UHGV virus genome: UHGV-0305822
Length of the DNA stretch: 64,000 bases
From: a virus
Reading direction: 5' to 3' (one strand)
A model generated the notes under the pieces. The model searched no databases. It saw only the letters and a list, made by a program, of their open reading frames with translations, and was not told the origin of the DNA. The position numbers and the translations under genes are program-made. This document shows, piece by piece, positions 5,423 through 18,608 of this stretch (position 1 is the stretch's first letter; every line of letters begins with the position of its first letter).

Positions 5423-5968
5423 ATGGCTAAAGCTTTCAATCTGCAGCTCATTGAAGCTGTTAAAGCTAAAAACCCTGAAACTGCTTCTAAACTGACCGTA
5501 AATGATGTCGATTTCGGGGCCGTAGAAGCTTACACCCCGACCGGTAAAAGCGACGCCCGTAACACTAAAGTTGTCCTGACAGCGAAAGAAAGCAGCGCTA
5601 ACTTCACCGGTAATAAAGAATTTCATTATATCCGTCTGGCTTCCGCTAACCTGATTGGTGCCAAAGCTTACCAACAGGAAGGTAGCCTCGACCTGGAAAA
5701 TGACGCTATCGTAACCAAACTCAATCAAGAAATGGTTACTAAAGGTTATGTCGATGACGCGTTCGCTGCAGGTGAACTCACTATTGAGAAAACTAATGGC
5801 GAGAGCGGTGCTAAGGTTTACACTATCAAAGTAAATGCTGGGCACATTAAATTCCTACCAGGTACCATTGCCACCTTCACCTATACCAACCCGGTTCCTC
5901 CGAAGGTAGCTCTGAGCGGCCTGGAAGGTGAACTGGACGGTTTCACCGCACCGTCTCCTAAAGAGTAA
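5423..5968 (+). CDS. hypothetical protein, paralog family member 3 (181 aa)
   Basis: N-terminal similarity to 1420/2282/6034 products; C-terminal GELDGFT motif shared with 6034 product; candidate TATAAT at ~5381. Confidence 0.6.
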   Translation: MAKAFNLQLIEAVKAKNPETASKLTVNDVDFGAVEAYTPTGKSDARNTKVVLTAKESSANFTGNKEFHYIRLASANLIGAKAYQQEGSLDLENDAIVTKLNQEMVTKGYVDDAFAAGELTIEKTNGESGAKVYTIKVNAGHIKFLPGTIATFTYTNPVPPKVALSGLEGELDGFTAPSPKE

Positions 5969-5972
5969 TTAA

Positions 5973-6008
5973 ATCGGGGAGGGGGTAACCTCCCCGATAT
6001 TTCTTTAA
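5973..6008 (+). terminator. rho-independent terminator candidate
   Basis: Stem ATCGGGGAGG / CCTCCCCGAT followed by ATTTCTTT. Confidence 0.55.
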
Positions 6009-6033
6009 CTCGTACTATTAAGGATTTAAGATA

Positions 6034-6564
6034 ATGGCAGCTACTAACCAGATGATGTTGGTCGCGCTTTATAATGCTGCTAACACTGAGCTACCACATC
6101 AGATTACTGATAAAGAAGTGTCCTTTGGTTTGCCTACTGCGCTGGAAGGCGAAGGTAAGAATACCAAAGTTACCATGACTGCACTGCCGGGTTCTGAGAA
6201 TTTCAAAGGCGCAATCGAACTGCATTACGATCGTCTGGAGCCGGGTGTTGTAGGTCGTATTGAACTAACTGACGATCTGTCTCGTTGGGAAGATCAAAAC
6301 GAATTGCGCGCATGGTTACAATATTACATCAATAAAGTTAAACCGGACGATGCTATTCATCCAGCGGACGTTTCTTATTCTACCGAAGACCAGAAAGACG
6401 AACATGAAAACGTCACTCTGCGTACCGTGACGTGCACCGTTACCGAAAAGAACCTCCGTTATAAACCAGGTGTAATGGCAACTTTCGTAATTACGCCGAA
6501 AGTTGTCGATAATCGTATTGACCTGGCCACCACCAACGGTGAGCTGGACGGCTTTACGTCCTAA
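6034..6564 (+). CDS. hypothetical protein, paralog family member 4 (176 aa)
   Basis: N-terminal similarity to 5423 product; C-terminal GELDGFTS. Confidence 0.6.
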   Translation: MAATNQMMLVALYNAANTELPHQITDKEVSFGLPTALEGEGKNTKVTMTALPGSENFKGAIELHYDRLEPGVVGRIELTDDLSRWEDQNELRAWLQYYINKVKPDDAIHPADVSYSTEDQKDEHENVTLRTVTCTVTEKNLRYKPGVMATFVITPKVVDNRIDLATTNGELDGFTS

Positions 6565-6565
6565 G

Positions 6566-6624
6566 AAAAAATAAAAAAAAATACCTACCTCCTATTACGG
6601 GAGGTAGGTATACTATTTTTTTTT
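6566..6624. terminator. bidirectional terminator (A-run, hairpin, T-run)
   Basis: AAAAAATAAAAAAAAA + stem TACCTACCTCC/GGAGGTAGGTA + TTTTTTTTT between convergent genes ending 6564 (+) and 6634 (-). Confidence 0.65.
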
Positions 6625-6633
6625 CGCTGTCGA

Positions 6634-7305
6634 TTACAGCCCTTGCTCTAACGCAAACGCTTTAATTGAATCGTAATCACGTGCTTCAGCCCAAGCCCTG
6701 ACTTCTCTTTTCTGCTCAGACATTGCGTGGTGTAGTCTTTGATCGCGCTCAACGATTGCTGCCAGCAACGTCTTGCACTGTTCTAACGTAAACGGTTCGA
6801 TACGGGTGTTGTTAGCCGTTAACCAATACGCTGGCGCAGTTTCTGACTGAATATAACGACTCAGTGCTACCTGTGACTTCTCATCTGCCTGGAAAGTGAA
6901 ATCACCTACCTGAATCTCAGCATAGCGTGCATCTTGATAACGGAATTCCAAAGCGCTTAGAATTTTCTGAACATCGGTAAAGATGTACCGCACCGTGGAA
7001 CGTAAACCTGTACGAATTTCTTCCAGGTCAATCCCCAACGTGTCGTTAACAAAGTCTTTCGCTTTCTGTAGCGTAAACCGTGCTTCGATTTCAGACATGT
7101 CGTAGTTACGCATTTGTTCCAATGCTTCGCGATCAGACATCCCATCAATCAACTTATAATGCAGTAACGCACAAAACCCTGTACGGCCGTGATCTTCGCT
7201 ACCGATTTTCTCCATGTAGTTACCATGACGGTCAATCGGTAAATCGTGCGCAAAATAACGGCGACGGATTTCTTCTTTCGTTAAGCCTTCACCAGTAGCA
7301 GACAT
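6634..7305 (-). CDS. hypothetical protein (223 aa), last gene of radical-SAM operon
   Basis: Long ORF, start overlaps upstream gene by 25 nt (translational coupling); no confident motif. Confidence 0.5.
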   Translation of the reverse strand: MSATGEGLTKEEIRRRYFAHDLPIDRHGNYMEKIGSEDHGRTGFCALLHYKLIDGMSDREALEQMRNYDMSEIEARFTLQKAKDFVNDTLGIDLEEIRTGLRSTVRYIFTDVQKILSALEFRYQDARYAEIQVGDFTFQADEKSQVALSRYIQSETAPAYWLTANNTRIEPFTLEQCKTLLAAIVERDQRLHHAMSEQKREVRAWAEARDYDSIKAFALEQGL

Positions 7306-7853
7306 TCATCGTCTCCTTTAATCAACCCTAATTCGATTAACAGTTCAAAATCGATATGACGGAATCTTGTGTCGAAGTCCGATTCCCAATCGATACGGAT
7401 ACCCTGGCATTCTTCTGGCGTTAGCTCAGGAAAAATCACGCTATTAAATTTCTCCCGCTCATCGTAAAACCCATCAATCGGTGAGTTCGGGTTACGTGTT
7501 GCGAAGATAGTAATGCCGGGGAAGGACAATGCCAACACAGTGATAGATTCTGCGCTGGGTTCGCTTAAAGAGCGGCGTAGAAACGCAATTTTGTGACGTG
7601 GGAAATCCAATACCCGTTCTTCAAACCCTGGGTTACGTTTTTCAATTTCCGCAACCGACAGGTCAGTAAGTTCGGTGCAGTACATTGGGATGATTACAGT
7701 CACGCCGTGACGAATCAGTAAGCGTTTTACGTCATCGGTGAAATCTTCACCGTTAATCACCACATAACAACCGAATAGCTTACTGTTTTCCAGAAACTTA
7801 TCCAGAAGTCGAATTCTACGCTTCGTAATATTGTTGATCAGAATTGGTTTCAT
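7281..7853 (-). CDS. hypothetical protein (190 aa)
   Basis: Long ORF overlapping both neighbours (7281-7305 and 7816-7853) on same strand. Confidence 0.5.
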   Translation of the reverse strand: MKPILINNITKRRIRLLDKFLENSKLFGCYVVINGEDFTDDVKRLLIRHGVTVIIPMYCTELTDLSVAEIEKRNPGFEERVLDFPRHKIAFLRRSLSEPSAESITVLALSFPGITIFATRNPNSPIDGFYDEREKFNSVIFPELTPEECQGIRIDWESDFDTRFRHIDFELLIELGLIKGDDECLLLVKA

Positions 7854-9138
7854 CTTTGGCTTCTCTTAATAATTTTTCCTTTTGGGCACGTTCACGAACA
7901 CAGCGTGGGCAATAACACATGCTCGTGTCGTGGAACGCTTTTGCTGACGTCGTACCCATCTTCTGTTTCCAGTATTCCGCCACCATCAGTTTCGCTGTCG
8001 TCCAGCCACACTGACGTCGTTCAGCGTGATACGCCTTACGGTCTTCTAACGTCCCTTCCCCGTTCTCGTAAGAAGCCGCTGCGCAGCTACCACAAGCGTG
8101 TTTCATCGGACAACCTAAACAGGTCTCTGGGTAGTTGGTATATTGCGTTTGAATCTCTTCTAACAATTTACCGTTGTCCAGACTGACGAATTCCCGACCT
8201 ACCAACTCAAACACCGCAGAACGCGACGTTACCGTTGACATAAAGCGGTTACAGCCAAAGATCTTACGGTCAAATCCTAAGCACGTCATGTGCGTTAACG
8301 TCCCACAAAACGGACGTAAACGTTCTGGGTTCAGCCGTACGGTGTCATTATACAGTAACTGGTCACGCCAGTTCGGTTCCCAAATCGTATCGAAATCCAA
8401 CCCTTCTGGAATGATGTGCGATAAGATATTACGTGGGTTGGTGTGTAATCCTTTCTCAACCCAGTAATCTATCACATCCATCATCTGTAACGCGATTGAC
8501 GTCGCCATGCTACGTGGCATAACGTCTTCGAAAGTTACGTTTCCAGAAATTGTCCCACCGCCAGTAATGTCAATTAATGACTTCATCCCCGCAGCATAGA
8601 ACGGCAGCGTTTCTAACGTAAAGGTTGCTTTTACGCCGAGCTCTGCAATGCCAACCTCTTTTAAGTAGTTATAGCCACGTACTGCGGCTTCGTAAGAACC
8701 CTGGCGTGTTGTTGTGAAGATACGATAACGGTCATGGGATTCAGGTAAGCCATCAATCGAAACCCCAACCGAAAGTTTATCTTTCCAACGTTCTACAATC
8801 TCACGGTTCAACGGACGATCTAACAGCGTTCCGTTCGTGGAGATACTAAACATAAACGGTCGGTTGTGTTCTTTACACAACTGCTCAGCGGTTTCAAACG
8901 CAGCCAGCAGCAGTTTAGGCTGCATGAACGGCTCACCACCGATAATGTCGATAATAACTTCAACATTCGGTTCGTTTTTATCACGTTCAAAACAGGCGTG
9001 TAAGAAATCAACAATATCCGCCGCTTTGTTGTTACGCGGGTACTTACGTTCGTAACAATATTCGCAGTCCAAGTTACACGAAAGGTTGGTTACGATCTGA
9101 TACGTTAACTGCTTAGGGAATTCATTTACTTGACTCAT
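7816..9138 (-). CDS. radical SAM enzyme with SPASM-type C-terminal Cys cluster (peptide/protein-modifying maturase candidate)
   Basis: N-terminal CNLDCEYC (Cx3Cx2C radical SAM 4Fe-4S motif); GGEPF SAM-binding-like motif; C-terminal FCG...C...C and CLGCPMKHACGSC clusters typical of SPASM auxiliary Fe-S domains. Confidence 0.8.
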   Translation of the reverse strand: MSQVNEFPKQLTYQIVTNLSCNLDCEYCYERKYPRNNKAADIVDFLHACFERDKNEPNVEVIIDIIGGEPFMQPKLLLAAFETAEQLCKEHNRPFMFSISTNGTLLDRPLNREIVERWKDKLSVGVSIDGLPESHDRYRIFTTTRQGSYEAAVRGYNYLKEVGIAELGVKATFTLETLPFYAAGMKSLIDITGGGTISGNVTFEDVMPRSMATSIALQMMDVIDYWVEKGLHTNPRNILSHIIPEGLDFDTIWEPNWRDQLLYNDTVRLNPERLRPFCGTLTHMTCLGFDRKIFGCNRFMSTVTSRSAVFELVGREFVSLDNGKLLEEIQTQYTNYPETCLGCPMKHACGSCAAASYENGEGTLEDRKAYHAERRQCGWTTAKLMVAEYWKQKMGTTSAKAFHDTSMCYCPRCVRERAQKEKLLREAKDETNSDQQYYEA

Positions 9139-10045
9139 TTGCCGCCCCTCTATTACGCCCTGCCATCACTACGCGACGAATATATTCGTACGCCTCTACA
9201 CCGATAGAGAAGGCCAGTTGGTTACATCCCGATTCCAGAACGTTAGGTGCATTCTGGAGTTGGTGCTCACCACCGTCTGCATTAATCCAAAGACTTTCGC
9301 TGCAAACGTTACACCCTTCTTCAAACACTTTACTTACTGTAAAGCCGCATTCACGACCATTTACTACATTCAGTCGTTCAATGTTATCCTGAACCTGATA
9401 GTAGCCGTAAATAAAGTTCATGACGTGGTCAGGCGATAAAGGTTTTGGCATTTTCGCATCTAAGAGTAACGTCATTGCACGGAAACCGTAATGGTAAATC
9501 GCGCTGTGCAGCTGAATAATATCTTCGTGCCAGCGTTTGTCCCCTAAACGGTCCCGTGTCAGGACACCCCAAGTCTGGACATTATCCAGCTCGTAGATCG
9601 TTTCCAGTGCTTCGTAACAGCCTTCGTCAATAAAGCGCATAAACGGGCGCTCAGACGACTTAAACCCATCGATGCTAACGTAGACATTGTCAAACTGTTT
9701 TAGCAACGGGAGATGCGATTTACGCATCTTTAAGCCATTGGTATACAACTGGTGTTTGAGTTCTGGACGAATCACTTTTAATTCGTCAACAAACGCCTCA
9801 ATTTTACGGGTTGCCAGTAATGGCTCACCACCCGTCCACTGAATTTCGGTAATGGTTGGATTAGCTTCCAGCGCTTCCAAAATTCGCTCACGTTGAAACT
9901 CTCGCGGAGAATCTTCACGATTCATGTAATAGGCTCCACCGCAGAAGCTACAATCCAGGTTGCACTTGGACGTAGCGACTACGGACAATACGGTGGGTTT
10001 ATCGTATAAACGATTCGATAACCTTGGTTCTGCATTGGTTGTCAT
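9122..10045 (-). CDS. radical SAM enzyme (second, shorter; partial auxiliary Cys cluster)
   Basis: CNLDCSFCGG (Cx3Cx2C); GGEPLL motif; C-terminal ECGF...CNVCSE Cys cluster; overlaps downstream rSAM start by 17 nt. Confidence 0.75.
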   Translation of the reverse strand: MTTNAEPRLSNRLYDKPTVLSVVATSKCNLDCSFCGGAYYMNREDSPREFQRERILEALEANPTITEIQWTGGEPLLATRKIEAFVDELKVIRPELKHQLYTNGLKMRKSHLPLLKQFDNVYVSIDGFKSSERPFMRFIDEGCYEALETIYELDNVQTWGVLTRDRLGDKRWHEDIIQLHSAIYHYGFRAMTLLLDAKMPKPLSPDHVMNFIYGYYQVQDNIERLNVVNGRECGFTVSKVFEEGCNVCSESLWINADGGEHQLQNAPNVLESGCNQLAFSIGVEAYEYIRRVVMAGRNRGAANESSK

Positions 10046-10066: not shown

Positions 10067-10966
10067 TTAAATATAATCAATGGCGAACAAAGGATCGTCG
10101 TCTACGTTAGCACCAGGGGTTAACAAGAATGGAGAGTTATACGCTTCCAAAATACGGTTAAGGTCTTTATAACGGACATTTAAACGTTCTAAATCCGCTA
10201 ACGTTACGTTACGGTCCAACACCGCCGACACTGCTGCTTTCTCTTCGTCAGTTAACGTGACTTTCGTCATTAAGAAACTAACGAGTTTTGCCAGATCCGC
10301 TTCTGTTGACGGATGCTCGCCAATACGCGTTTGAATCAAATGCTGCATCCAAGGCTTACGGATGCGTTTTGTGATTTCGTGTTCATCTGTCAGGGCAACC
10401 CACACGGAACGTTCACGATCCCACACGAACTTATAGCTATACGCCATTAAATCCGCTAAGCAATTAATCCCTAACGCTTCGTACCCTTCAATTTCGATAT
10501 ACGATTCCGTATCGAAATAGTTCTTCGTTTCTGGTGTTACCAGGGTAAAGAAATACGGGAACGAGCCTAAGTAATCCGGTGACCACCAACGACGGGCAAC
10601 CGGTTTTGCGCCCATTTCTTCAAATGGGGTAAAGAACAATTCCATATCTACGGAGTTATTCAAAATCCCGTCACTAAAGAAATATTTACCCGCAACCAGT
10701 TTACCACGCAACTCGGAGTCACCGGTAAAGACCACTACACTTTCTGCCGTCAGATCACGAATCTTAAACGTATTTTCTACACGATAGTTTTTACGATCGG
10801 TGAAGAAACGTCCGCGCACTTTAGGCCATTCGCCCGGCAACTGAGTCAACAGACGAACTTCATCTGCTAAGTGTGCACGTACGGAATCAGGGGAAGAAAT
10901 GTGAAGTGGGTGATTGAAAATTGTTTTGTACGCTAAATGTAAATCATTCTTCATTGATTGCTCCAA
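10067..10966 (-). CDS. hypothetical protein (299 aa), between Cys-rich genes and radical SAM genes
   Basis: Long ORF on operon strand; no recognisable motif. Confidence 0.5.
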   Translation of the reverse strand: MEQSMKNDLHLAYKTIFNHPLHISSPDSVRAHLADEVRLLTQLPGEWPKVRGRFFTDRKNYRVENTFKIRDLTAESVVVFTGDSELRGKLVAGKYFFSDGILNNSVDMELFFTPFEEMGAKPVARRWWSPDYLGSFPYFFTLVTPETKNYFDTESYIEIEGYEALGINCLADLMAYSYKFVWDRERSVWVALTDEHEITKRIRKPWMQHLIQTRIGEHPSTEADLAKLVSFLMTKVTLTDEEKAAVSAVLDRNVTLADLERLNVRYKDLNRILEAYNSPFLLTPGANVDDDPLFAIDYI

Positions 10967-11103
10967 TTATTTCACGGTCAAACAGACATTCAGGGTATAG
11001 AAACCACCGCACCATTGCCTACCGGTGACTTGAAACTCAGTAGTAAACCCGTACGATTAACTCGGTTATTGCGTAATAGACATACTACCACTGGAGGGCT
11101 TAG

Positions 11104-11310
11104 TTACCTTCCCCCCGCACCTTTACTACAGCTACCACTGCACGACCAGCTACATCCGCCGTTACAGTTATAATGGCTTAAAGGTAAACCGGCAAGGTTA
11201 TTGGTTGAAGACACAGTGCCCTGGTTTGCAATATAGTTGTTTGCGTTAGCGGTCGTAATATACCCTTCCGCTGTTACTAACCGATCACGAAGGTTCTTAA
11301 GGCTAATCAC
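11104..11310 (-). CDS. Cys-rich leader+core protein C (short core, ~68 aa)
   Basis: ORF track start 11340 is TTG and overlaps gene B; GTG at 11310 preceded by GGGAGG gives MISLKNLRDRL...HYNCNGGCSWSCSGSCSKGAGGR; N-terminus similar to protein A. Confidence 0.5.
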   Translation of the reverse strand: MISLKNLRDRLVTAEGYITTANANNYIANQGTVSSTNNLAGLPLSHYNCNGGCSWSCSGSCSKGAGGR

Positions 11311-11312
11311 AA

Positions 11313-11711
11313 TTACCTCCCAGAACACCCACCAGAACAACTACCTGAGCAGCCTGCAGAACAGTTTCCTACACACGAGTTAGAACAACTCCCCGTACAG
11401 CTTCCTGAACAGCCACCAGAACAGGTATTCGAACATCCACTACAGCCTGCACTACAACCTGATACACAGTTTGCAGAACACGAAGAACCACAGCCGCCTG
11501 ATGCGTTCCCTGTACAACCACCAGAACAGCTCGAACAGGTCCAGCTACAGCTCCCACCACAGTCATAGTGGTTGCGAGCTTGCCCACCGAATAAGTCTGC
11601 GTTGTTCGTCGCTTTCCCACGAATATAGTTTTGTACTGCACCCGTATTCTTCAATGCAGTGTTGTCAATGTTATTTAGCCGCGCTTGTAGCGCAGGTAAT
11701 CCAATTGCCAT
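11313..11711 (-). CDS. Cys-rich leader+core protein B (132 aa)
   Basis: ~50-aa Cys-free N-terminal segment then HYDCGGSCSWTCS followed by ~80 aa of CSG/CTG repeats (about 25 Cys). Confidence 0.6.
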   Translation of the reverse strand: MAIGLPALQARLNNIDNTALKNTGAVQNYIRGKATNNADLFGGQARNHYDCGGSCSWTCSSCSGGCTGNASGGCGSSCSANCVSGCSAGCSGCSNTCSGGCSGSCTGSCSNSCVGNCSAGCSGSCSGGCSGR

Positions 11712-11721
11712 TTTTCACCTC

Positions 11722-12120
11722 TTAGGTTGGGCCAGAACAGCCACCAGAGCAAGCACCAGAACAACCCGTAGAACAACGGCCCGAGCAAGCACCCCCACAG
11801 GTCCCACTGCAACCTGAGCAGCCACCGGAACACGTTGAACTACATCCAGTACACTGGTTACCGCACGCAGAGGAGCAGCTACCTACACACACTGACGTAC
11901 AGGTGCCCGAACAACTCGTACAGCCATGCGTACAACCGTTTGAGCACGTCCAGCTGCAACTCCCCCCGCAGTCTAACCGACTTGGCGTCCAACCCGAAAA
12001 AGTGTCGGCGGCATTATGTGCTTTCGACGCAACTTGCGGATCAACACGTGGGCCAGTTGCCATTTGGTTCTCTACGTTGGTGATTCGGTCACGTACATTT
12101 TTAACACTGATCGCCATCAC
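11722..12120 (-). CDS. Cys-rich leader+core protein A (132 aa)
   Basis: N-terminal MAISVKNVRDRITNVENQ..., junction RLDCGGSCSWTCS, then Cys/Gly/Ser/Thr repeats; GTG-ATG start with AAGGA RBS. Confidence 0.6.
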   Translation of the reverse strand: MMAISVKNVRDRITNVENQMATGPRVDPQVASKAHNAADTFSGWTPSRLDCGGSCSWTCSNGCTHGCTSCSGTCTSVCVGSCSSACGNQCTGCSSTCSGGCSGCSGTCGGACSGRCSTGCSGACSGGCSGPT

Positions 12121-12128
12121 GTATCCTT

Positions 12129-12174
12129 AAAATAAAAAAGAATGGAGGACTACGCCCATAAGCATAGTTCCTCC
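12129..12174 (-). terminator. terminator hairpin downstream of 401-aa fibre gene, immediately upstream of Cys-rich gene A
   Basis: Minus-strand GGAGGAACTATGCTTATGGGCGTAGTCCTCC hairpin followed by ATTCTTTTTTATTTT. Confidence 0.55.
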
Positions 12175-12184
12175 TGTAATAAAG

Positions 12185-13390
12185 TTATTTCGTACCCGCT
12201 TCTGCCTGAACGTCATCACGGGACGTCAAGTTAGCGTTAACGTGTACTGGAGCCTGAACCACACCACCGTATTTCTTGTGGAGATAGCCTGTGTGTGGGT
12301 TATCCGCCGCAATATGGTTTTGCAGGTTCTGATTCGCCTGACTGATCGCGTTCGTGTTATTCGCAACCTGTTGTTTAAGCGCATCCAGGTTTTGTTGCAG
12401 ATTATCAATTTTCTGATCGGACTCATTACCCCGTTGTTCTAACGCAGCAATGCGCTGAATCGCTTGGTTGAGTTTGGTGCTCAGATCGTTGATATTTTTC
12501 TGTAACTGTAACACTAGCGAATTTAGGTTCGCCAATGCCAATGCCATTTTCTGGTAGTTTTGTGCAACGATGTTAAGTTGGTCGTTCCACGCTTCCAAAG
12601 ATTTGACAACAGCATCAATACGTTTTCCTAACGCTTCATCCGCTTTCTTCAACGCATTAATATCAGTAATGGTTGCATCGATGGCAGACTGTACATCACG
12701 GATAAGTGCACGGATCTCCGTTTCTGTTAACCCGTTAACCTGGTGAATATCCAGATGGTGGACGTTACCCGTGGCGTTAATGTGCGCGTTCAGCGCGTCC
12801 AGGAAATCGTTTTTCAGGCTTTCGAGAATCGCTTTGATGTTCTCAAGCTGTACAGCATCGCCCGCCGTTATCGCATCTTTAATGCCAGCGAGCACTGTAA
12901 TGATATATTCGAAGCCGTAAATATCGCCGACGTCTTTATACGTCGGTGCCGACGGAAATGTATCTGGAACATTTCGCAAGTCTTTAAAGCCAACAGTTCG
13001 ATTATCGAGATTCAACTCAGCAATCGCCTGTTCTATCGCAGTCACGTTTGCCGACTGCGGACCCCCGACCACTTGCGCCGAAACCGTGATATCGGTCGGA
13101 ATCGCGGTGTTCGTTACAACAACCGCCATTACCACTTCCCGGTTCTTCGTCAATTTCTCGTAAGCCGGGTGTGCAAAAATCAACTCATAGTCCGTTCCGC
13201 GCTCATACGTCGCATCGGGGCGGTTAGCAACCCGCAAGCGGAACGTATCAGCATAAAACGGACCGTCAGGAAAAGCAAACGCACGGTTAACTTTACCTGT
13301 ACCTAACGTAACCTGACGCTCCACGGCGTTAGAGGTTAGGGTTCCCGTTAAATCTAAAGGGTATTGGTATACAATGGAGGCCATGGCCAC
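12185..13390 (-). CDS. tail fibre-like protein (401 aa) with C-terminal coiled coil
   Basis: N-terminal FPDGPFY ... GTDYEL motif shared with the three giant ORFs; long heptad-like Q/N/L-rich region. Confidence 0.6.
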   Translation of the reverse strand: MAMASIVYQYPLDLTGTLTSNAVERQVTLGTGKVNRAFAFPDGPFYADTFRLRVANRPDATYERGTDYELIFAHPAYEKLTKNREVVMAVVVTNTAIPTDITVSAQVVGGPQSANVTAIEQAIAELNLDNRTVGFKDLRNVPDTFPSAPTYKDVGDIYGFEYIITVLAGIKDAITAGDAVQLENIKAILESLKNDFLDALNAHINATGNVHHLDIHQVNGLTETEIRALIRDVQSAIDATITDINALKKADEALGKRIDAVVKSLEAWNDQLNIVAQNYQKMALALANLNSLVLQLQKNINDLSTKLNQAIQRIAALEQRGNESDQKIDNLQQNLDALKQQVANNTNAISQANQNLQNHIAADNPHTGYLHKKYGGVVQAPVHVNANLTSRDDVQAEAGTK

Positions 13391-13424: not shown

Positions 13425-16400
13425 TTAAGATGTAAACATAAGATTGAACTGGAGCTTATCGATATCGCGCGTTTGTGCTGGGTTAACCGCGTCGTACGTG
13501 GTTGCCACGTAGACCGTTAATGTCCCGTCAGCAAACGAGGTTTTCACCGGTGGCGTAGTCCCTGTCTGTCCATCAGTTACAATGACGACAGGTTGAGACG
13601 GGAGTTGATGGAACTGACCCTTAACCGCTTTATACACCAAACCAGATTGCGCTGCTAACTCCGTGTCGGTATACACGATAAACGGTGTGTCGATATCTGT
13701 CTGTTTAATGACAGTGTTCGACTCAACGTCAATCAGCTGAACAGCACCGAACTTCGTACGGTAGCTATCGTATTCATTTTTTGGAATGACAAACGTAGCA
13801 TGTACACGGACTTCTTCGGCGGGCTTAAATCCGGCGTGTTCTTTTTCCAGATAGCTGTTAGCAGTTAACGTTACTGTCTGTTCAGTCATCGTACCACCAG
13901 ACTGGTTTAACCCGTAACGAACTTGGGTTATACCTGTCGGAGCCGCAAGCCTGATTTTTAGTCTACGGTTAGCGGTACCAGGATCGCCTGGCACTCTAAC
14001 ACGCAGGCTCAAAGCCAGATATGCATTCGCACCGGTAGTCGGTTTCGTATACGCACCCAACCACTTCATATTCGCGGTTGCCGCTTGACTGTTCTCAGAA
14101 GCAGTAGCCGCTGCAACGTTCGCAGCAACCGCTTTCTGCCAGAACTGGTCAGCGCAGTTTTCATACGCTACTCTACCGATACTTTTATAACCTGCGTAGG
14201 TTTCCTGTATCGGCAACTTGGGACGTGTTGTGATCCCGCTCAACGCATTCCATCTCTGACCATCGACATACCCTGCACCATTGCTCGCAGATGCCGTGGG
14301 GGCTTTCAGCGGTTGGTTAACCAAGGTTTGAAGTGGACCCGTTTTTCGATCGTACGCCGCCGCAACGTCGTGCTGATCTCTAACGGCAGCGTGTTCTTCT
14401 AATTCACGAACCCTGCCTAGCCGTTTCACTTTATCGATGTTAATAGCAACAATGCGCTTTTTATCGGTTGTAACTGTACCAACAAATAATCGCGAAGTCG
14501 TATCCGGCAGCTTTTCCAGCCCGATCTGATATTGAGCTTTCGAACCTACAAGAGCAGCATGAACATAGAACGTCTGGTTAGCATGGTTTTCTGGGAATTC
14601 ATTGCTTAAATCCACCGACCACGTCGGTAATGTATAGCTATTACTACCGAAATCTAACCTGACCTCTTCCGTCAAATATAGAATCCAGCCTTCCGCAGTC
14701 TCCACACCGGCGATAATAACCGCCTCCCCCCCAGTTGAGAACCTGGTGTCATTAACGAACTCTTCGGCTGTATATGCGTTACCTGAACAGAAGACACGAT
14801 CTGCTTTAGAGAAAATTAGTGCCATCTTGTCCCAATTACCCGCTCCCATGTAGCAGCCTGATTCGGGATTATGTGCAGGGGCCATCTGACGCAACTGTGA
14901 CTTACCGGGAACGCGAGTCCAGCCCGACCCAGGGTCGAAGGTGTACTTCGCAGCGTAACCCAAAGCATTTAGGTCCCCGATATTCCGTATTGTCAGCGTA
15001 TAAGGCAGCCATAGACCGAAGTTTACACCGTCGGCAGAAGCAAAAATGGGCTGGCCTACACGTCGCGTTTTATTACCCGCTTCTTCCCTCAGAGACTGAT
15101 AACTTAAGCCGTAATCAAGGTCTAAGAACCAATCAACGAGTTTGAAAGTAGCCGAGTTAAAACGTAGATAACCGTTTTCTTTGGTCGGGCTCACCATGAA
15201 GTAATAGATGTCGAGGACTCGACGTCCGTTACTCAGGATTTTCATACATGAGACTTGTAATAGGTCGAACTCACAAACAGTGTTAATGCCTAGCAACCAG
15301 AGCGCAAACAACGCGTTGCCGCTTTGGTGTGCTGCACTGATGCGCTCGTTCGCGTAACCATTTGCCTGACCAGATGGTGCGCCATCGACAATCATCCTAA
15401 TCATCTTCTGGCGATCCGCTTCCTCTAACGTCAGTCGTTCTGATGACAAGGCAAAGTTACCGTAGATGTTCCGATATGGGAAGGTTTCCGCTTTCGTCAA
15501 ATACCAACCGTTTAATTGCCCGTGACGCTCCTCAGGAGTCATGCAAGCAGCCATACAGCTTAACTGTTCGTAAAGGGTTGCATCAACTTCTCGACGGTTG
15601 TTGTTCGGGCCATAACCGCTATATCCGGGAACGTCATAAGGTTTACTTGGGTCAACTTCTACTTCGATCGTATAGCGGTTACGCGGATTGGATAACCATA
15701 CTTTGTTTGAGCCACCGATACCGACAGGATGAGAAAGACCAATGGTATAGATAGAACCACGACCTTTATCCCAAGTAAATGTCGCTTCGCCTGAGGTATT
15801 GTTTGGGTTATCGTAACGCAGATAATCAAAAAACTCTTTGCCTTGCGTACTTTTAATAGTAACATTCGGCATCTGGTCCGCATCGTTAATCTGCCAGCAG
15901 GAAAGCATCATTCCTGAGACATTAGGTTTAGCATACGTCGCAAAACAACGATTGTTTGCTTGGCCGCCACCCCACTTACGACTGGTTTCTACAGTTGAGC
16001 CATCCGCGAACGATAGTCTGGTAGTATCAACCTTAATGGGGAAACGTTCGGCACCCTCTAACGTAACTCTGCCCGTTAACGTATCGATTGTGAAACTTGT
16101 TGACCATTGACGGAAATTAATCGTCGTACCGTCGGCAGCCGCAAACCACACGCTGGGGACATGATTCACACGAATAACGCTGTCGCGTACCGCACAAGCA
16201 TGGTTACATTCTGGACCGTGAACAAAGTTGTGACCGATTGTCCATTTAGCCCGTGCCTCTGGCGGGTAATACGTAAAGAACTGACCAGTCTGCGACTCTT
16301 CGGTCTTCTGGCCAATTCTTAGGCAGAGGTTATCTCCGAATTGCCCCATTTCTCCGGTTAGGGTTACACGTTCAAATTCTAACTCAGTATTGGTAGTCAA

Positions 16401-18608
16401 ATCGGCTTTACGTAAACGCCATGCCGCCACGGCATAAGCAGAGTTATTTACCGTGGAACGAAGAAGATAAACGTGATCGTCAACTAACACAACATCGTCA
16501 GCTTCTGGCCAAGGATTCCAGGTTTGTTCCACAGTACCGCTGGGGTTGCCATTACGGTATTTAGGCATTGTAACACGACATACCACCGTGTGTTTACTGT
16601 GGTCCATTGAACCATTGAACAACACCAAATAACGGTTATTATCAGAACCCAGACAAATAATCGCTTCCTGACCACCAACCAATATCGCTTTTAAGGTCAC
16701 TCCAGGATATTTACTCATCCCAACGGGATGGTATTTCACCGAAGTTTGCTGAGGGTTCACAAACACATTCGACGTATTGATATCAGCATAGCCGTAGTAA
16801 ATAGCCTCTGTACCAGGTACACCATTAGAAGCATTACGTAACGAATAAACTTTACCTTGTTGGAATCCTACAACGCCTTTCTGATAGGACTGGTTCTTTG
16901 TAAAACCTGAATAATTACCGAGTGCCGGAATGGGTAAGAAGTTTTTGTTACCGAACTTCGCCCCACCGACAGTCCACGCAGGTAAGATGGTATTCAGTTT
17001 ATCAGAGACTTTCTTAATCTCTTTTGCGAACAACCAGCCTTGACGAGACGTGACGGCTTTATCGCTCGTGGTATCAATCGCATCCCACAACTGTAAGATA
17101 CCATCCACAGTCGCGCTGCCAATCGGGACATTATCCAAATCGGCGGTAGTGTGCGTGTGCTCCTTCACACTTTTATTTTTCAGCACGTTCGCTAACGCTT
17201 TTGTTACCGGTTTAGCGATCGGCATGGTGTTATCCATCTTATCGATACCGAAATCGGTTTTCGTTAAGGTTAACACCATTTTATCGCCCGTCTTAACAAA
17301 CCCTTTACCGTTAACCGTGTAGTCATCGTCAACGTACAAGTCTAACCGGTCTTTTAACTCGGTCACCGCCTTTTGGGAAATAGCAGTGCCTAGTGCTACG
17401 GAGGTTGCGATATTCGTAATCGAAAACACCCCATAAACCGACTCGGTTGCTGTGGGAATATTCGCGTTCAACGTTAGCGGGTTAGACTGCTTCGCTGTAC
17501 CGTATGGTTTTACGGTGTCTGATGGTTTGAAATAGGCATTTGCTTCAAGTAACGTTACAGACGTCAGGTACATGTTCACCATTTCTGGTGTAACCAAATA
17601 CACAGAGTTGTAAACCGGCGCTAATACATCCTGTTCTGTCCCAGAGTGCACCCAAAGCGTATTCAGTCCCGCACTAAATTCAACCGCCAAACCCGATTCG
17701 TTGTTGTCCTGGTCCGCTTTAATCACTAGCGGTTGCGGTGAGGTAATTAACCACTTATCACCACGGATACTGATGATGTGTCCGCCTGCGGTTTTAAACG
17801 TCAGTTCGTTACCGTTCGTGCTACCCCATCGACCGTAAACAGTGCCGAGGGCTTCACCCATTAACTGATCAACGTCTGATTGCTCAATACCCGCCGAACC
17901 CATCAGCGTAGCCAACTCGTCAATCGTCAGTCCAAACGCTTTTGTCGCGTCAACAGCACGTCCCAAAACCGGAAGGGCACCAACATCAGTGGTCGTATAC
18001 TGGTGTGCGTTAGGATTAAGGTGGTGTTGGTATAACTCCTCGTCGAAAACTTTTTTACCGTTCTCGTAAATCAGGTTAGTGACTTCGGTAAACGCTGCAT
18101 CTAACTCTGTTGAACGTTGAACGATTTTCTTACGGATGTCGTTTAACGCTTTAACAACCTCATCCCTCAGAATAGCTTCTTCTAAGTTAGCAGGGGGATC
18201 GATAGGTTGTATAACCGGTGCATACGCCATTAACTCTGACCAGTCCACGTTACGTGGGTCTTTCAGGTCAGTACGAACTAAGAACTTTCCGATTTCAGAT
18301 TGTGGTACACGATACTGGCGTGCTACCCCTAAAATCTCATATTCGATTTCTGTTGCGGTCAGCAACATAAACCCGCCATAAATCTGATCTTGCTCAGCTT
18401 CTGCGAGTTCTTTAAAGTAATAGCCTAAATAGTAGTCCAACCCCTCAATCAGAGTACGACGTCCGTTAGGCGCGGTATCGTCGGCTACTGTGAGTTTTAA
18501 TCCGATACGATAAAAAGGTCCTTCAGGCGGAATGACCACATTAAATCGGTTAGGGTACGTCGCTGTGCTTAACGTACCGTTAAACTGCGCCGCGTCTTCT
18601 CTCGGCAT
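13425..18608 (-). CDS. large tail fibre protein (1727 aa)
   Basis: N-terminal PPEGPFY ... EGLDYYL anchor-like motif; internal fibre-repeat-like segments (ATESVYGV...KAVTELK). Confidence 0.65.
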   Translation of the reverse strand: MPREDAAQFNGTLSTATYPNRFNVVIPPEGPFYRIGLKLTVADDTAPNGRRTLIEGLDYYLGYYFKELAEAEQDQIYGGFMLLTATEIEYEILGVARQYRVPQSEIGKFLVRTDLKDPRNVDWSELMAYAPVIQPIDPPANLEEAILRDEVVKALNDIRKKIVQRSTELDAAFTEVTNLIYENGKKVFDEELYQHHLNPNAHQYTTTDVGALPVLGRAVDATKAFGLTIDELATLMGSAGIEQSDVDQLMGEALGTVYGRWGSTNGNELTFKTAGGHIISIRGDKWLITSPQPLVIKADQDNNESGLAVEFSAGLNTLWVHSGTEQDVLAPVYNSVYLVTPEMVNMYLTSVTLLEANAYFKPSDTVKPYGTAKQSNPLTLNANIPTATESVYGVFSITNIATSVALGTAISQKAVTELKDRLDLYVDDDYTVNGKGFVKTGDKMVLTLTKTDFGIDKMDNTMPIAKPVTKALANVLKNKSVKEHTHTTADLDNVPIGSATVDGILQLWDAIDTTSDKAVTSRQGWLFAKEIKKVSDKLNTILPAWTVGGAKFGNKNFLPIPALGNYSGFTKNQSYQKGVVGFQQGKVYSLRNASNGVPGTEAIYYGYADINTSNVFVNPQQTSVKYHPVGMSKYPGVTLKAILVGGQEAIICLGSDNNRYLVLFNGSMDHSKHTVVCRVTMPKYRNGNPSGTVEQTWNPWPEADDVVLVDDHVYLLRSTVNNSAYAVAAWRLRKADLTTNTELEFERVTLTGEMGQFGDNLCLRIGQKTEESQTGQFFTYYPPEARAKWTIGHNFVHGPECNHACAVRDSVIRVNHVPSVWFAAADGTTINFRQWSTSFTIDTLTGRVTLEGAERFPIKVDTTRLSFADGSTVETSRKWGGGQANNRCFATYAKPNVSGMMLSCWQINDADQMPNVTIKSTQGKEFFDYLRYDNPNNTSGEATFTWDKGRGSIYTIGLSHPVGIGGSNKVWLSNPRNRYTIEVEVDPSKPYDVPGYSGYGPNNNRREVDATLYEQLSCMAACMTPEERHGQLNGWYLTKAETFPYRNIYGNFALSSERLTLEEADRQKMIRMIVDGAPSGQANGYANERISAAHQSGNALFALWLLGINTVCEFDLLQVSCMKILSNGRRVLDIYYFMVSPTKENGYLRFNSATFKLVDWFLDLDYGLSYQSLREEAGNKTRRVGQPIFASADGVNFGLWLPYTLTIRNIGDLNALGYAAKYTFDPGSGWTRVPGKSQLRQMAPAHNPESGCYMGAGNWDKMALIFSKADRVFCSGNAYTAEEFVNDTRFSTGGEAVIIAGVETAEGWILYLTEEVRLDFGSNSYTLPTWSVDLSNEFPENHANQTFYVHAALVGSKAQYQIGLEKLPDTTSRLFVGTVTTDKKRIVAINIDKVKRLGRVRELEEHAAVRDQHDVAAAYDRKTGPLQTLVNQPLKAPTASASNGAGYVDGQRWNALSGITTRPKLPIQETYAGYKSIGRVAYENCADQFWQKAVAANVAAATASENSQAATANMKWLGAYTKPTTGANAYLALSLRVRVPGDPGTANRRLKIRLAAPTGITQVRYGLNQSGGTMTEQTVTLTANSYLEKEHAGFKPAEEVRVHATFVIPKNEYDSYRTKFGAVQLIDVESNTVIKQTDIDTPFIVYTDTELAAQSGLVYKAVKGQFHQLPSQPVVIVTDGQTGTTPPVKTSFADGTLTVYVATTYDAVNPAQTRDIDKLQFNLMFTS

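Follow-up and report, generated by a model that had tools for sequence, protein, structure and literature searches.

What a phage would do with three consecutive cysteine-rich reading frames is the question raised by positions 11,104 to 12,120 of a 64,000-nt stretch of the virus genome UHGV-0305822 (hereafter the window), where the frames, here called A, B and C, lie on the minus strand between tail-fibre genes and two radical S-adenosylmethionine (rSAM) enzyme genes. The window comes from a jumbo phage related to Salmonella phage SPN3US, is about 72–75% identical to Seoulvirus, and a 63-aa query recovered the IMG/VR contig IMGVR_UViG_3300029126_000001 at 100% identity. We find that A, B and C are true genes which, judged from their sequences, are members of the CXXX-repeat radical-SAM target family, and which travel with the same enzyme genes through several phage lineages, recurrently in tail modules. 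We propose that their products are proteins cross-linked by the rSAM enzymes, probably through thioether bonds, and working together with the baseplate fibres, a reading to which we give a probability of roughly 0.5.

Genes A, B and C and their candidate maturation enzymes

The three genes and the four that follow them in the window are:

11722..12117, minus strand: gene A, 131 aa, ATG start, phrog_6085 (1.6e-40)
11313..11711, minus strand: gene B, 132 aa, phrog_6085 (4.7e-38)
11104..11310, minus strand: gene C, 68 aa, GTG start, phrog_6085 (2.3e-24)
10067..10954, minus strand: 295-aa accessory protein with an orphan fold, phrog_8030
9122..10045, minus strand: small rSAM enzyme, 307 aa, Pfam Radical_SAM (6e-14)
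7816..9138, minus strand: large rSAM/SPASM enzyme, 440 aa, TIGR04115 (6.5e-33), PapB (1.2e-33)
7281..7853, minus strand: 190-aa accessory protein, phrog_7988, its first codons overlapping with the last ones of the large rSAM gene

A, B and C are paralogues that share a helical N-terminus of ~48 aa and a C-x-G-x-C-S-W entry motif. The leader-like N-terminus spans residues 1–49 in A (11971–12117) and 1–50 in B (11562–11711), followed by Cys-ladder cores at residues 50–131 (11725–11970) and 51–132 (11316–11561), respectively, and in C residues 1–48 precede a core, CNGGCSWSCSGSCSKGAGGR, with 4 Cys. The core lengths of 82, 82 and 20 aa agree with those given by a first-pass annotation of the window (~80 aa for A and B, ~20 aa for C), which had also reported the three consecutive minus-strand frames correctly; its estimate of about 25 Cys in each of A and B, however, has to be lowered to 21 and 20. 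The cysteines follow each other at a spacing of 4, occasionally 3 and once 8 residues, with Gly, Ser, Thr or Ala in between in the ladders of A and B. The pattern exceeds chance: no other part of the window, in any of its six frames, has a run of four or more Cys spaced 3–4 residues apart. The entry motif CGGSCSW(T/S)CS, thought at first to be common to all three, is found as CGGSCSWTCS in A and B, but reads CNGGCSWSCS in C. The proposed N-terminal motif shared by A and C (ISVKNVRDRI and ISLKNLRDRL) is real, and B carries a diverged copy of it. Read directly from the sequences, all three N-termini show a 3-4-3-4 hydrophobic pattern over about two heptads, as would be seen in a short coiled coil and equally in a leader that forms an amphipathic helix, and the junction to the core is conserved as D/N-x-F/L-x-G ... 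Y-x-C-x-G-x-C-S-W. An underlying DNA repeat of 9–12 nt, as first described, is weak, since Tandem Repeats Finder returned only two short 12-nt arrays of 2–2.8 copies; the periodicity sits at the protein level.

Given this composition, it had to be considered that the frames are not genes and are merely thrown up by a GC-rich, codon-like DNA repeat. Several alternative-frame and opposite-strand open reading frames (ORFs) are indeed open, as the first-pass annotation had pointed out, and annotators have picked different frames in different phages. This explanation is nevertheless refuted by comparison with relatives. A, B and C occur in the same order and the same frame in all 18 SPN3US-like phages examined, from five genera (among them SPN3US, pEa_SNUABM_29, Asesino, phiEaH2, ChrisDB, Huxley, pSal-SNUABM-04, Wellington, CR5, Phobos, EarlPhillipIV and six metagenomic relatives), and the Cys frame is the only one kept over its full length. 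No Cys column varies in the alignments, with exactly 21 Cys in A throughout, 20–23 in B and 4 or 2 in C, the latter number being found in Derbicusvirus and Wellingtonvirus, and C-x-G-x-C-S-W is always kept. Indels are confined to 1 residue (CXXX to CXX) or to 8–9 residues in the B proteins of Wellington and Derbicusvirus, and the frame-disrupting variation that was sought in homologues as a possible refutation did not appear. Values of dN range from 0.1 to 0.3 at saturated synonymous sites, with dN/dS of about 0.1 where computable. Shine-Dalgarno sequences precede all three genes, and all three match phrog_6085, next to the NCBIfam repeat match described below. Taking in-frame conservation, invariant cysteines, low dN/dS, ribosome-binding sites and family membership together, A, B and C are therefore genes. 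Ongoing variation in repeat number, which had been suspected, is unsupported, since the number of cysteines is fixed. Two alternative starts should be mentioned: the mechanical ORF of A begins one codon earlier, at GTG 12120, and for C a 78-aa TTG-started ORF overlapping B is open, which is not conserved.

C in some relatives runs on into a further domain of 80–140 aa. One such case is a close relative (L018 8001–8633, ENA ERZ2916498, a 222-kb contig), in which C measures 210 aa because a run of 11 G at the usual stop brings a 140-aa beta-rich extension into frame; the extension has no start codon of its own, and the sister contigs L023 and L024 keep a C of 68 aa. A second G-run variant of C (P0163) and another C-terminal extension (P0061) were observed. 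The long form of the L018 type could be real variation, homopolymer slippage or an assembly error. Divergent Salmonella phage records of the 'SPFM' series were left out of the comparison, their gene order and similarity appearing scrambled and their description reading 'XXX'; about a dozen of them (e.g. L034, SPFM14, LR535912) show only short-fragment matches at this locus in an odd gene order, and they look like problematic assemblies and not like real replacements of the module.

Most public annotations of this phage group either miss A and B or put a 'hypothetical protein' from another frame or the opposite strand in their place, and C alone is usually called correctly. This was seen in SPN3US NC_027402 (locus L001, 9167–10196) and in L002–L011, and the wrong calls include SPN3US gp166/ACQ60_gp100, Asesino gp184–186, Huxley gp176–177, Phobos gp167–168 and CR5_157. 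In SPN3US NC_027402 the true genes A, B and C lie on the minus strand at about 143828–144220, 143413–143817 and 143191–143397, and the N-terminal tryptic peptides expected of their products include VQIVEANMATGPR, IDAQVASK, LNTIDANALK and LVTAEGYITTAQANNYIANQGTVSTTNNLAGLPLSHYNCNGGCSWSCSGSCSR.

The family assignment rests on a search of 18,950 NCBIfam models. TIGR04114, the CXXX-repeat rSAM target (cut-off 20 bits), is matched by B at 20.4 bits, which is marginal, and by A at 14.4 bits; orthologues score higher (CR5 A 31.5, CR5 B 33.7, Wellington B 24.4 and A' of the distant contig L012 23.2 bits). The 440-aa enzyme matches TIGR04115 (cut-off 350 bits) with 114.7 bits, end to end over model positions 3–345 of 359, and TIGR04115 and PapB are its two best NCBIfam matches. 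By sequence it is a divergent relative of the TIGR04115 maturase that is also PapB/CteB-like. Its nearest solved relative is the thioether-forming CteB (5wgg), to which it aligns with residue 19 on chain residue 105; the rSAM motif starts at residue 21 (CX3CX2C, Cys 21/25/28), and in this alignment the enzyme has no N-terminal extension of the size of a RiPP recognition element (RRE; RiPP, ribosomally synthesised and post-translationally modified peptide). No RRE match in Pfam or NCBIfam was obtained for any protein of the module. The motif cysteines and eight SPASM-type cysteines (278, 286, 296, 340, 343, 349, 352 and 377) are invariant in 15 of 15 orthologues, and beyond them an extra C-terminal CxCxxC at residues 408–413, kept in 14 of the 15, may constitute an additional metal site. 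The small rSAM enzyme carries CX3CX2C at 28/32/35 and only three further cysteines (245, 248 and 274) that are invariant in 15 orthologues; its nearest solved relative is SkfB (3e-6). For the 295-aa protein AlphaFold2 (AF2) yields a confident model (predicted local distance difference test score, pLDDT, 86.8), for which the PDB and BFVD hold no similar fold except that of its own orthologue. None of the operon genes matches a peptidase or transporter family, and processing by a host protease would be possible. PDB sequence searches with the profiles of the jumbo-phage leaders and of the classical CXXX non-repeat domain gave no match. The AF2 model of B, which is of low confidence, predicts N-terminal helices at residues 5–34 and a disordered core, a prediction that cannot separate a RiPP core from a part folding on modification or assembly.

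Recurrence of the cassette and its tail setting

Targets, phrog_8030 protein, small rSAM and large rSAM recur together in three further phage lineages, and the 190-aa protein is part of the module in two lineages:

Distant large phage contig L012: A' with 15 Cys, B' with 16 Cys, C' with CGGSCSW only, 295-aa homologue, small rSAM, large rSAM, 190-aa homologue
L020: CXXX protein, small rSAM, 295-aa homologue, large rSAM
L115, a phage whose portal and adaptor are of the SU10 type: CXXX protein, 295-aa homologue, one 669-aa rSAM fusion

In L012 the 190-aa homologue occupies the same position as in the window (E = 1e-12). The fusion in L115 (10490–12499 of an 88-kb contig, Logan SRR29999896) consists of a small-rSAM-like and a large-rSAM/SPASM-like half, is 34% identical to the large enzyme of the window (E = 4e-56), and adjoins the CXXX protein of 260 aa and the homologue of the 295-aa family. 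Target and rSAM genes are neighbours in the window, in the 18 relatives and in all three of these phages. The fusion, together with the retention of C-type proteins that have only C-x-G-x-C-S-W, suggests a division of labour, with one enzyme perhaps modifying the entry motif and the other the CXXX ladder. The reading as leader plus core, and the connection with rSAM enzymes, both put forward in the first-pass annotation, are supported by the TIGR04114 match, the TIGR04115/PapB-like enzyme and co-occurrence in four lineages. Close to the L012 cassette, a small gene with a Pfam match to an Acb2/Tad1 hairpin (an anti-defence sponge) lies just upstream (9600–9821), and GIY-YIG and GroEL-like genes lie downstream.

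The cassette of the window is placed between the virion proteins gp167/gp168 and tail-related genes. A receptor-binding-like gene lies upstream of it in L020, a tail-fibre/spike gene adjoins it in L019, and in L115 it lies inside the virion module, between the adaptor gene and large structural genes. Three gut-phage contigs (L013–15) carry a CXXX protein in a fibre module next to a bona fide TIGR04115 enzyme (378.6 bits in L013). At the level of the targets themselves, the homologues P0005, P0069, P0074, P0077 and P0106 have N-terminal domains of 95–150 aa ahead of the same leader-like segment and core; the N-terminus of P0069 matches phrog_5073 'tail fiber' (1.4e-5), which lends modest support, and that of P0074 weakly matches phrog_19976 'tail assembly' (5e-4). 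A tblastn search of phage records added nothing annotated on these fibre-like domains, and the RTX-type proteins P0073 and P0078 from the hidden Markov model search were judged to be spurious repeat matches. The idea of fibre docking, raised at the outset, thereby gains indirect support from homologues and tail modules; direct sequence resemblance to the fibre proteins was not found, as discussed below.

A comparable setting is seen in bacteria. A first genome scan with a single rSAM sequence had returned no relatives; an alignment-based query of one genome per species recovered at least 485 TIGR04115-like loci, mostly in Clostridia, of which 80 were kept (L035–L114). A CXXX protein is adjacent to the TIGR04115-like rSAM gene in 63 of these 80. 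The bacterial CXXX proteins, two of which may be encoded in tandem, are often large; the shortest has 150 aa and the longest, in L092, 669 aa and 145 Cys. Their conserved non-repeat domain of ~100 aa is N- or C-terminal. In L036 and L056 the order is tape measure, tail/baseplate proteins, tail fibre, CXXX protein, two small genes, rSAM and endolysin, and homologues of the tail proteins of these two loci were detected in at least 30 of the 80. The classical CXXX loci inspected thus lie in prophages, between tail-fibre and lysis genes. Metagenomes contributed at least 464 CXXX proteins.

In the window, the genes form a single minus-strand operon from the 1727-aa fibre gene down to a 223-aa gene, with a bidirectional terminator at its end:

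13425..18608, minus strand: 1727-aa tail/baseplate-fibre protein, homologue of SPN3US gp168
12185..13390, minus strand: 401-aa coiled-coil virion protein directly upstream of A, homologue of SPN3US gp167, phrog_2163 (8.6e-104)
12144..12174, minus strand: stem-loop separating the 401-aa gene from A, with a U-rich run behind it at about 12128–12143
6634..7305, minus strand: 223-aa DUF4376-type protein, last gene of the operon, phrog_8169, weak tail-fibre PHROG matches
6581–6611, both strands: bidirectional terminator, a perfect 12–13-bp hairpin with T-runs flanking it on both strands

Counterparts of the 223-aa protein are labelled DUF4376 in relatives, and it is uncertain whether it is part of the rSAM module. 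Of the two fibre-related proteins upstream, gp168 belongs to the tail and resembles phiKZ gp131, a protein of the baseplate periphery (PMC5105663), and virion mass spectrometry detected both gp167 and gp168 in purified SPN3US virions. The same data list gp167–173, the neighbouring virion tail proteins, and do not list gp161–166, so that the SPN3US enzymes and the 295-aa homologue gp165 were not found in virions. In another chimallivirus eight rSAM genes were noted in a tail-fibre cluster and called 'highly unusual' (PMC12390700).

The stem-loop upstream of A, missed by a simple terminator scan and found by RNA folding, has a predicted energy of −21.4 kcal/mol (z = −4.2), a stability that 0 of 200 shuffled sequences reached. 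At the same place in SPN3US a hairpin with another sequence is predicted (z = −3.5), and the structure is hence conserved despite sequence divergence. It looks like a terminator or attenuator and may attenuate read-through into A-B-C and the rSAM genes, or stabilise the upstream mRNA. A spacer of ~150 nt without conserved ORF (10955–11103) separates gene C from the 295-aa gene; it is similar in relative L023 and only about 20 nt long in SPN3US, and its predicted RNA structure is not unusual (z = 0.36). That it is a remnant of the long-C extension was considered and dropped, BLAST supporting only the last few codons. The terminator at 6581–6611 divides the operon from plus-strand genes at 5423–6564, among which 5423–5968 and 6034–6564 encode a pair of similar small proteins annotated as DUF7941 in relatives. 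A further pair of similar small proteins is encoded at 1420–2268 and 2282–2758, and by its position one of these proteins appears to be the counterpart of SPN3US gp160, which is abundant in the head and is assigned to 'paralog family B'.

Proposed mechanism and rival explanations

Taking these observations together, we infer that the two enzymes act on A, B and C, that the chemistry is thioether formation and that the products are incorporated into, or act on, the fibres. In the mechanism we propose, A, B and C would be translated with a short amphipathic helical N-terminus, the entry motif and, in A and B, the ladder. Their recognition would depend on the N-terminal segment, the entry motif or both, with the 295-aa or the 190-aa protein as candidate for the recognising component, since no RRE is present. 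The small and large rSAM enzymes, together with the 295-aa and 190-aa proteins, would then cross-link the Cys-rich part in the reducing cytoplasm, the bridges being most likely Cys-S-to-carbon thioethers, by analogy with PapB, CteB and SkfB. Disulfides do not form in the reducing cytoplasm where phage particles assemble, and enzymatic cross-links would therefore give rigidity in a compartment in which disulfides cannot. The matured products would associate with the baseplate fibres, for which the 401-aa and 1727-aa genes of this operon code, and would serve there as stapled rods with a structural or accessory role, not as secreted peptides. The N-terminal helices may bring A, B and C together, and the fixed composition of the trio hints at a hetero-oligomer.

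Several observations weigh against this proposal. The similarity of the N-termini to the C-terminal heptads of the 401-aa protein, which had been suggested as a basis for docking, was not recovered, as BLASTP against the two fibre proteins gave E = 1.3 and 10, and A, B and C show no similarity to known fibre domains in Pfam, PHROG or PDB searches either. The leaders likewise show no relation to the domain that classical CXXX proteins carry outside the repeat (hhalign probability 0.3%). The 440-aa enzyme lies far below the equivalog cut-offs of both TIGR04115 and PapB, so that its chemistry may differ, and the cores lack Asp and Glu, the acceptors that PapB uses. In L012 no tail-fibre gene was called within 10 kb on either side of the cassette. 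The SPN3US virion data are silent on A, B and C, which were undetectable because the database lacked their true sequences, gp166 being a wrong-frame ORF. Lastly, the layout of a leader and a core predicted to be disordered in B fits a classical RiPP equally well.

The last point leads to the alternative that the module is a classical phage RiPP system, in which leaders of ~48 aa guide the rSAM enzymes and are cut off, e.g. after the conserved F/L-x-G, and thioether-rich cores are freed at lysis as antimicrobial, signalling or host-manipulating products without any structural role. We regard this as unlikely, while granting it real weight: besides the conserved leader/core junction, the enzymes are closest to the RiPP maturases PapB, CteB and SkfB, NCBIfam names related small Cys-rich families such as TIGR04118 rSAM-modified RiPPs, and both the lack of a called fibre gene near the L012 cassette and the absence of the enzymes and the 295-aa protein from SPN3US virions speak for it. 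However, neither a protease nor an exporter is recognisable in the module, and the maturase lacks the RRE-sized extension. The leader-like segment is internal in those homologues that carry 95–150-aa domains ahead of it, one with a tail-fibre PHROG match, and C is prolonged by a further domain in some relatives. Classical CXXX proteins reach 669 aa and 145 Cys, and some have the non-repeat domain at the C-terminus. Unrelated phages agree in placing these genes among those for the tail or virion, and the number of cysteines is strictly fixed, unlike in hypervariable RiPP cores.

Another possibility, which we consider distinctly unlikely, is that cross-linked A, B and C act only transiently, helping the large baseplate fibres to fold or trimerise in the manner of a scaffold or chaperone, and do not stay in the particle. 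Their slot after the fibre genes is where phages usually encode fibre assembly proteins, tail assembly chaperone genes are found nearby in relatives, and the weak P0074 match points in the same direction; yet Pfam, NCBIfam and PHROG reveal no similarity to a known fibre chaperone family, covalent modification by two dedicated enzymes is hard to justify for a transient helper, and the homologues with fibre-like N-terminal domains point to proteins that are attached to the particle. Least plausible among the explanations that accept A, B and C as genes is that they are metal-binding or disulfide-bonded proteins, metallothionein- or beta-solenoid-like, and that the rSAM enzymes act on some other substrate. 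Their richness in Cys, Gly, Ser and Thr does recall metallothioneins and disulfide-rich solenoids, but the coupling of targets with enzymes is strict in no fewer than four phage lineages, a CXXX protein adjoins the TIGR04115-like rSAM in 63 of the 80 bacterial loci, orthologues of C with only two Cys are retained, which would be odd for a metal binder, and disulfides would again not form where the phage is assembled.

Relation to known systems and significance

The closest known system is the CXXX-repeat rSAM target system, defined in silico by TIGR04114 (Pfam PF27846), the TIGR04115 maturase and the related TIGR04117/TIGR04118. The module shares with it a Cys at every fourth residue with small residues in between, targets (B and A/B orthologues) that pass the TIGR04114 cut-off, an adjacent rSAM/SPASM gene and the phage tail-module setting in a gut-phage fibre module and in Clostridial prophages. 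It differs in the score of the large rSAM enzyme, in its accessory proteins and in its targets. A second, small rSAM is present, and the ~185-aa and ~113-aa accessory proteins of the classical system are unrelated to the 295- and 190-aa proteins, BLASTP giving no similarity between the 295-, 190- and 223-aa proteins of the window and the accessories in L013, L036 and L056. The N-terminal segment is unrelated to the ~100-aa domain (LK..VKAE..RR...GS.A.Y ... EH..K), to which P0003, P0099 and P0116 look intermediate, by eye only. The host context, finally, is a jumbo myovirus of Enterobacteria instead of a Firmicute prophage. The second rSAM, two orphan proteins, three paralogous targets and the specific C-x-G-x-C-S-W entry motif are the module's own features. 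A literature search found no experimental paper on the CXXX-repeat system, nor any on this phage module.

Among characterised systems, PapB–freyrasin, CteB–SCIFF/thermocellin and SkfB are nearest by sequence and, like the proposed enzymes, are rSAM proteins with auxiliary Fe-S clusters acting on Cys-rich ribosomal peptides. By this analogy, maturation of the ranthipeptide/sactipeptide type is probably how the system works, with the differences that the window maturase has no RRE domain, the cores offer no Asp/Glu acceptors, the targets are longer with 20–21 Cys, no protease or exporter is encoded, and the genes lie within a virion structural operon. A precedent for a structural outcome is QhpD, an rSAM/SPASM enzyme that installs Cys thioether cross-links in QhpC, the gamma subunit of quinohemoprotein amine dehydrogenase; here a small Cys protein is stapled and then becomes a permanent subunit of a larger complex. 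The QhpD model TIGR03906 matches the window enzyme at 6.4e-17 and the gut-phage enzyme at 9.9e-33. The QhpC substrate is unrelated to A, B and C, however, and has few cross-links instead of a long ladder, in an enzymatic and not a viral context.

Extending the proposal to the whole family, phages would apply RiPP-type rSAM chemistry to their own particle, with CXXX proteins as stapled, tail-fibre-associated Cys-ladder rods in TIGR04114/TIGR04115 systems generally, and with A, B and C perhaps forming a fixed hetero-oligomer on the baseplate fibres, a generalisation that we offer tentatively. Whatever the function turns out to be, the missing or wrong-frame and wrong-strand calls of A and B in most public genomes of the group leave proteomic and comparative studies blind to them. 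If the proposal is correct, the module represents an undescribed post-translational modification pathway for virion or tail proteins. Work on rSAM cross-linking has until now dealt with peptide natural products and a small number of enzyme subunits. The proposed pathway would provide a function for the orphan family represented by the metagenomic CXXX proteins and TIGR04115-like bacterial loci counted here, and would account for the rSAM genes noted in jumbo-phage tail clusters (PMC12390700). On the family-wide reading, TIGR04114/TIGR04115 systems would be prophage tail components and not bacteriocin-like RiPPs, and in phages considered for biocontrol of Salmonella and Erwinia the cross-linked proteins would be a new determinant of fibre stability or host recognition.

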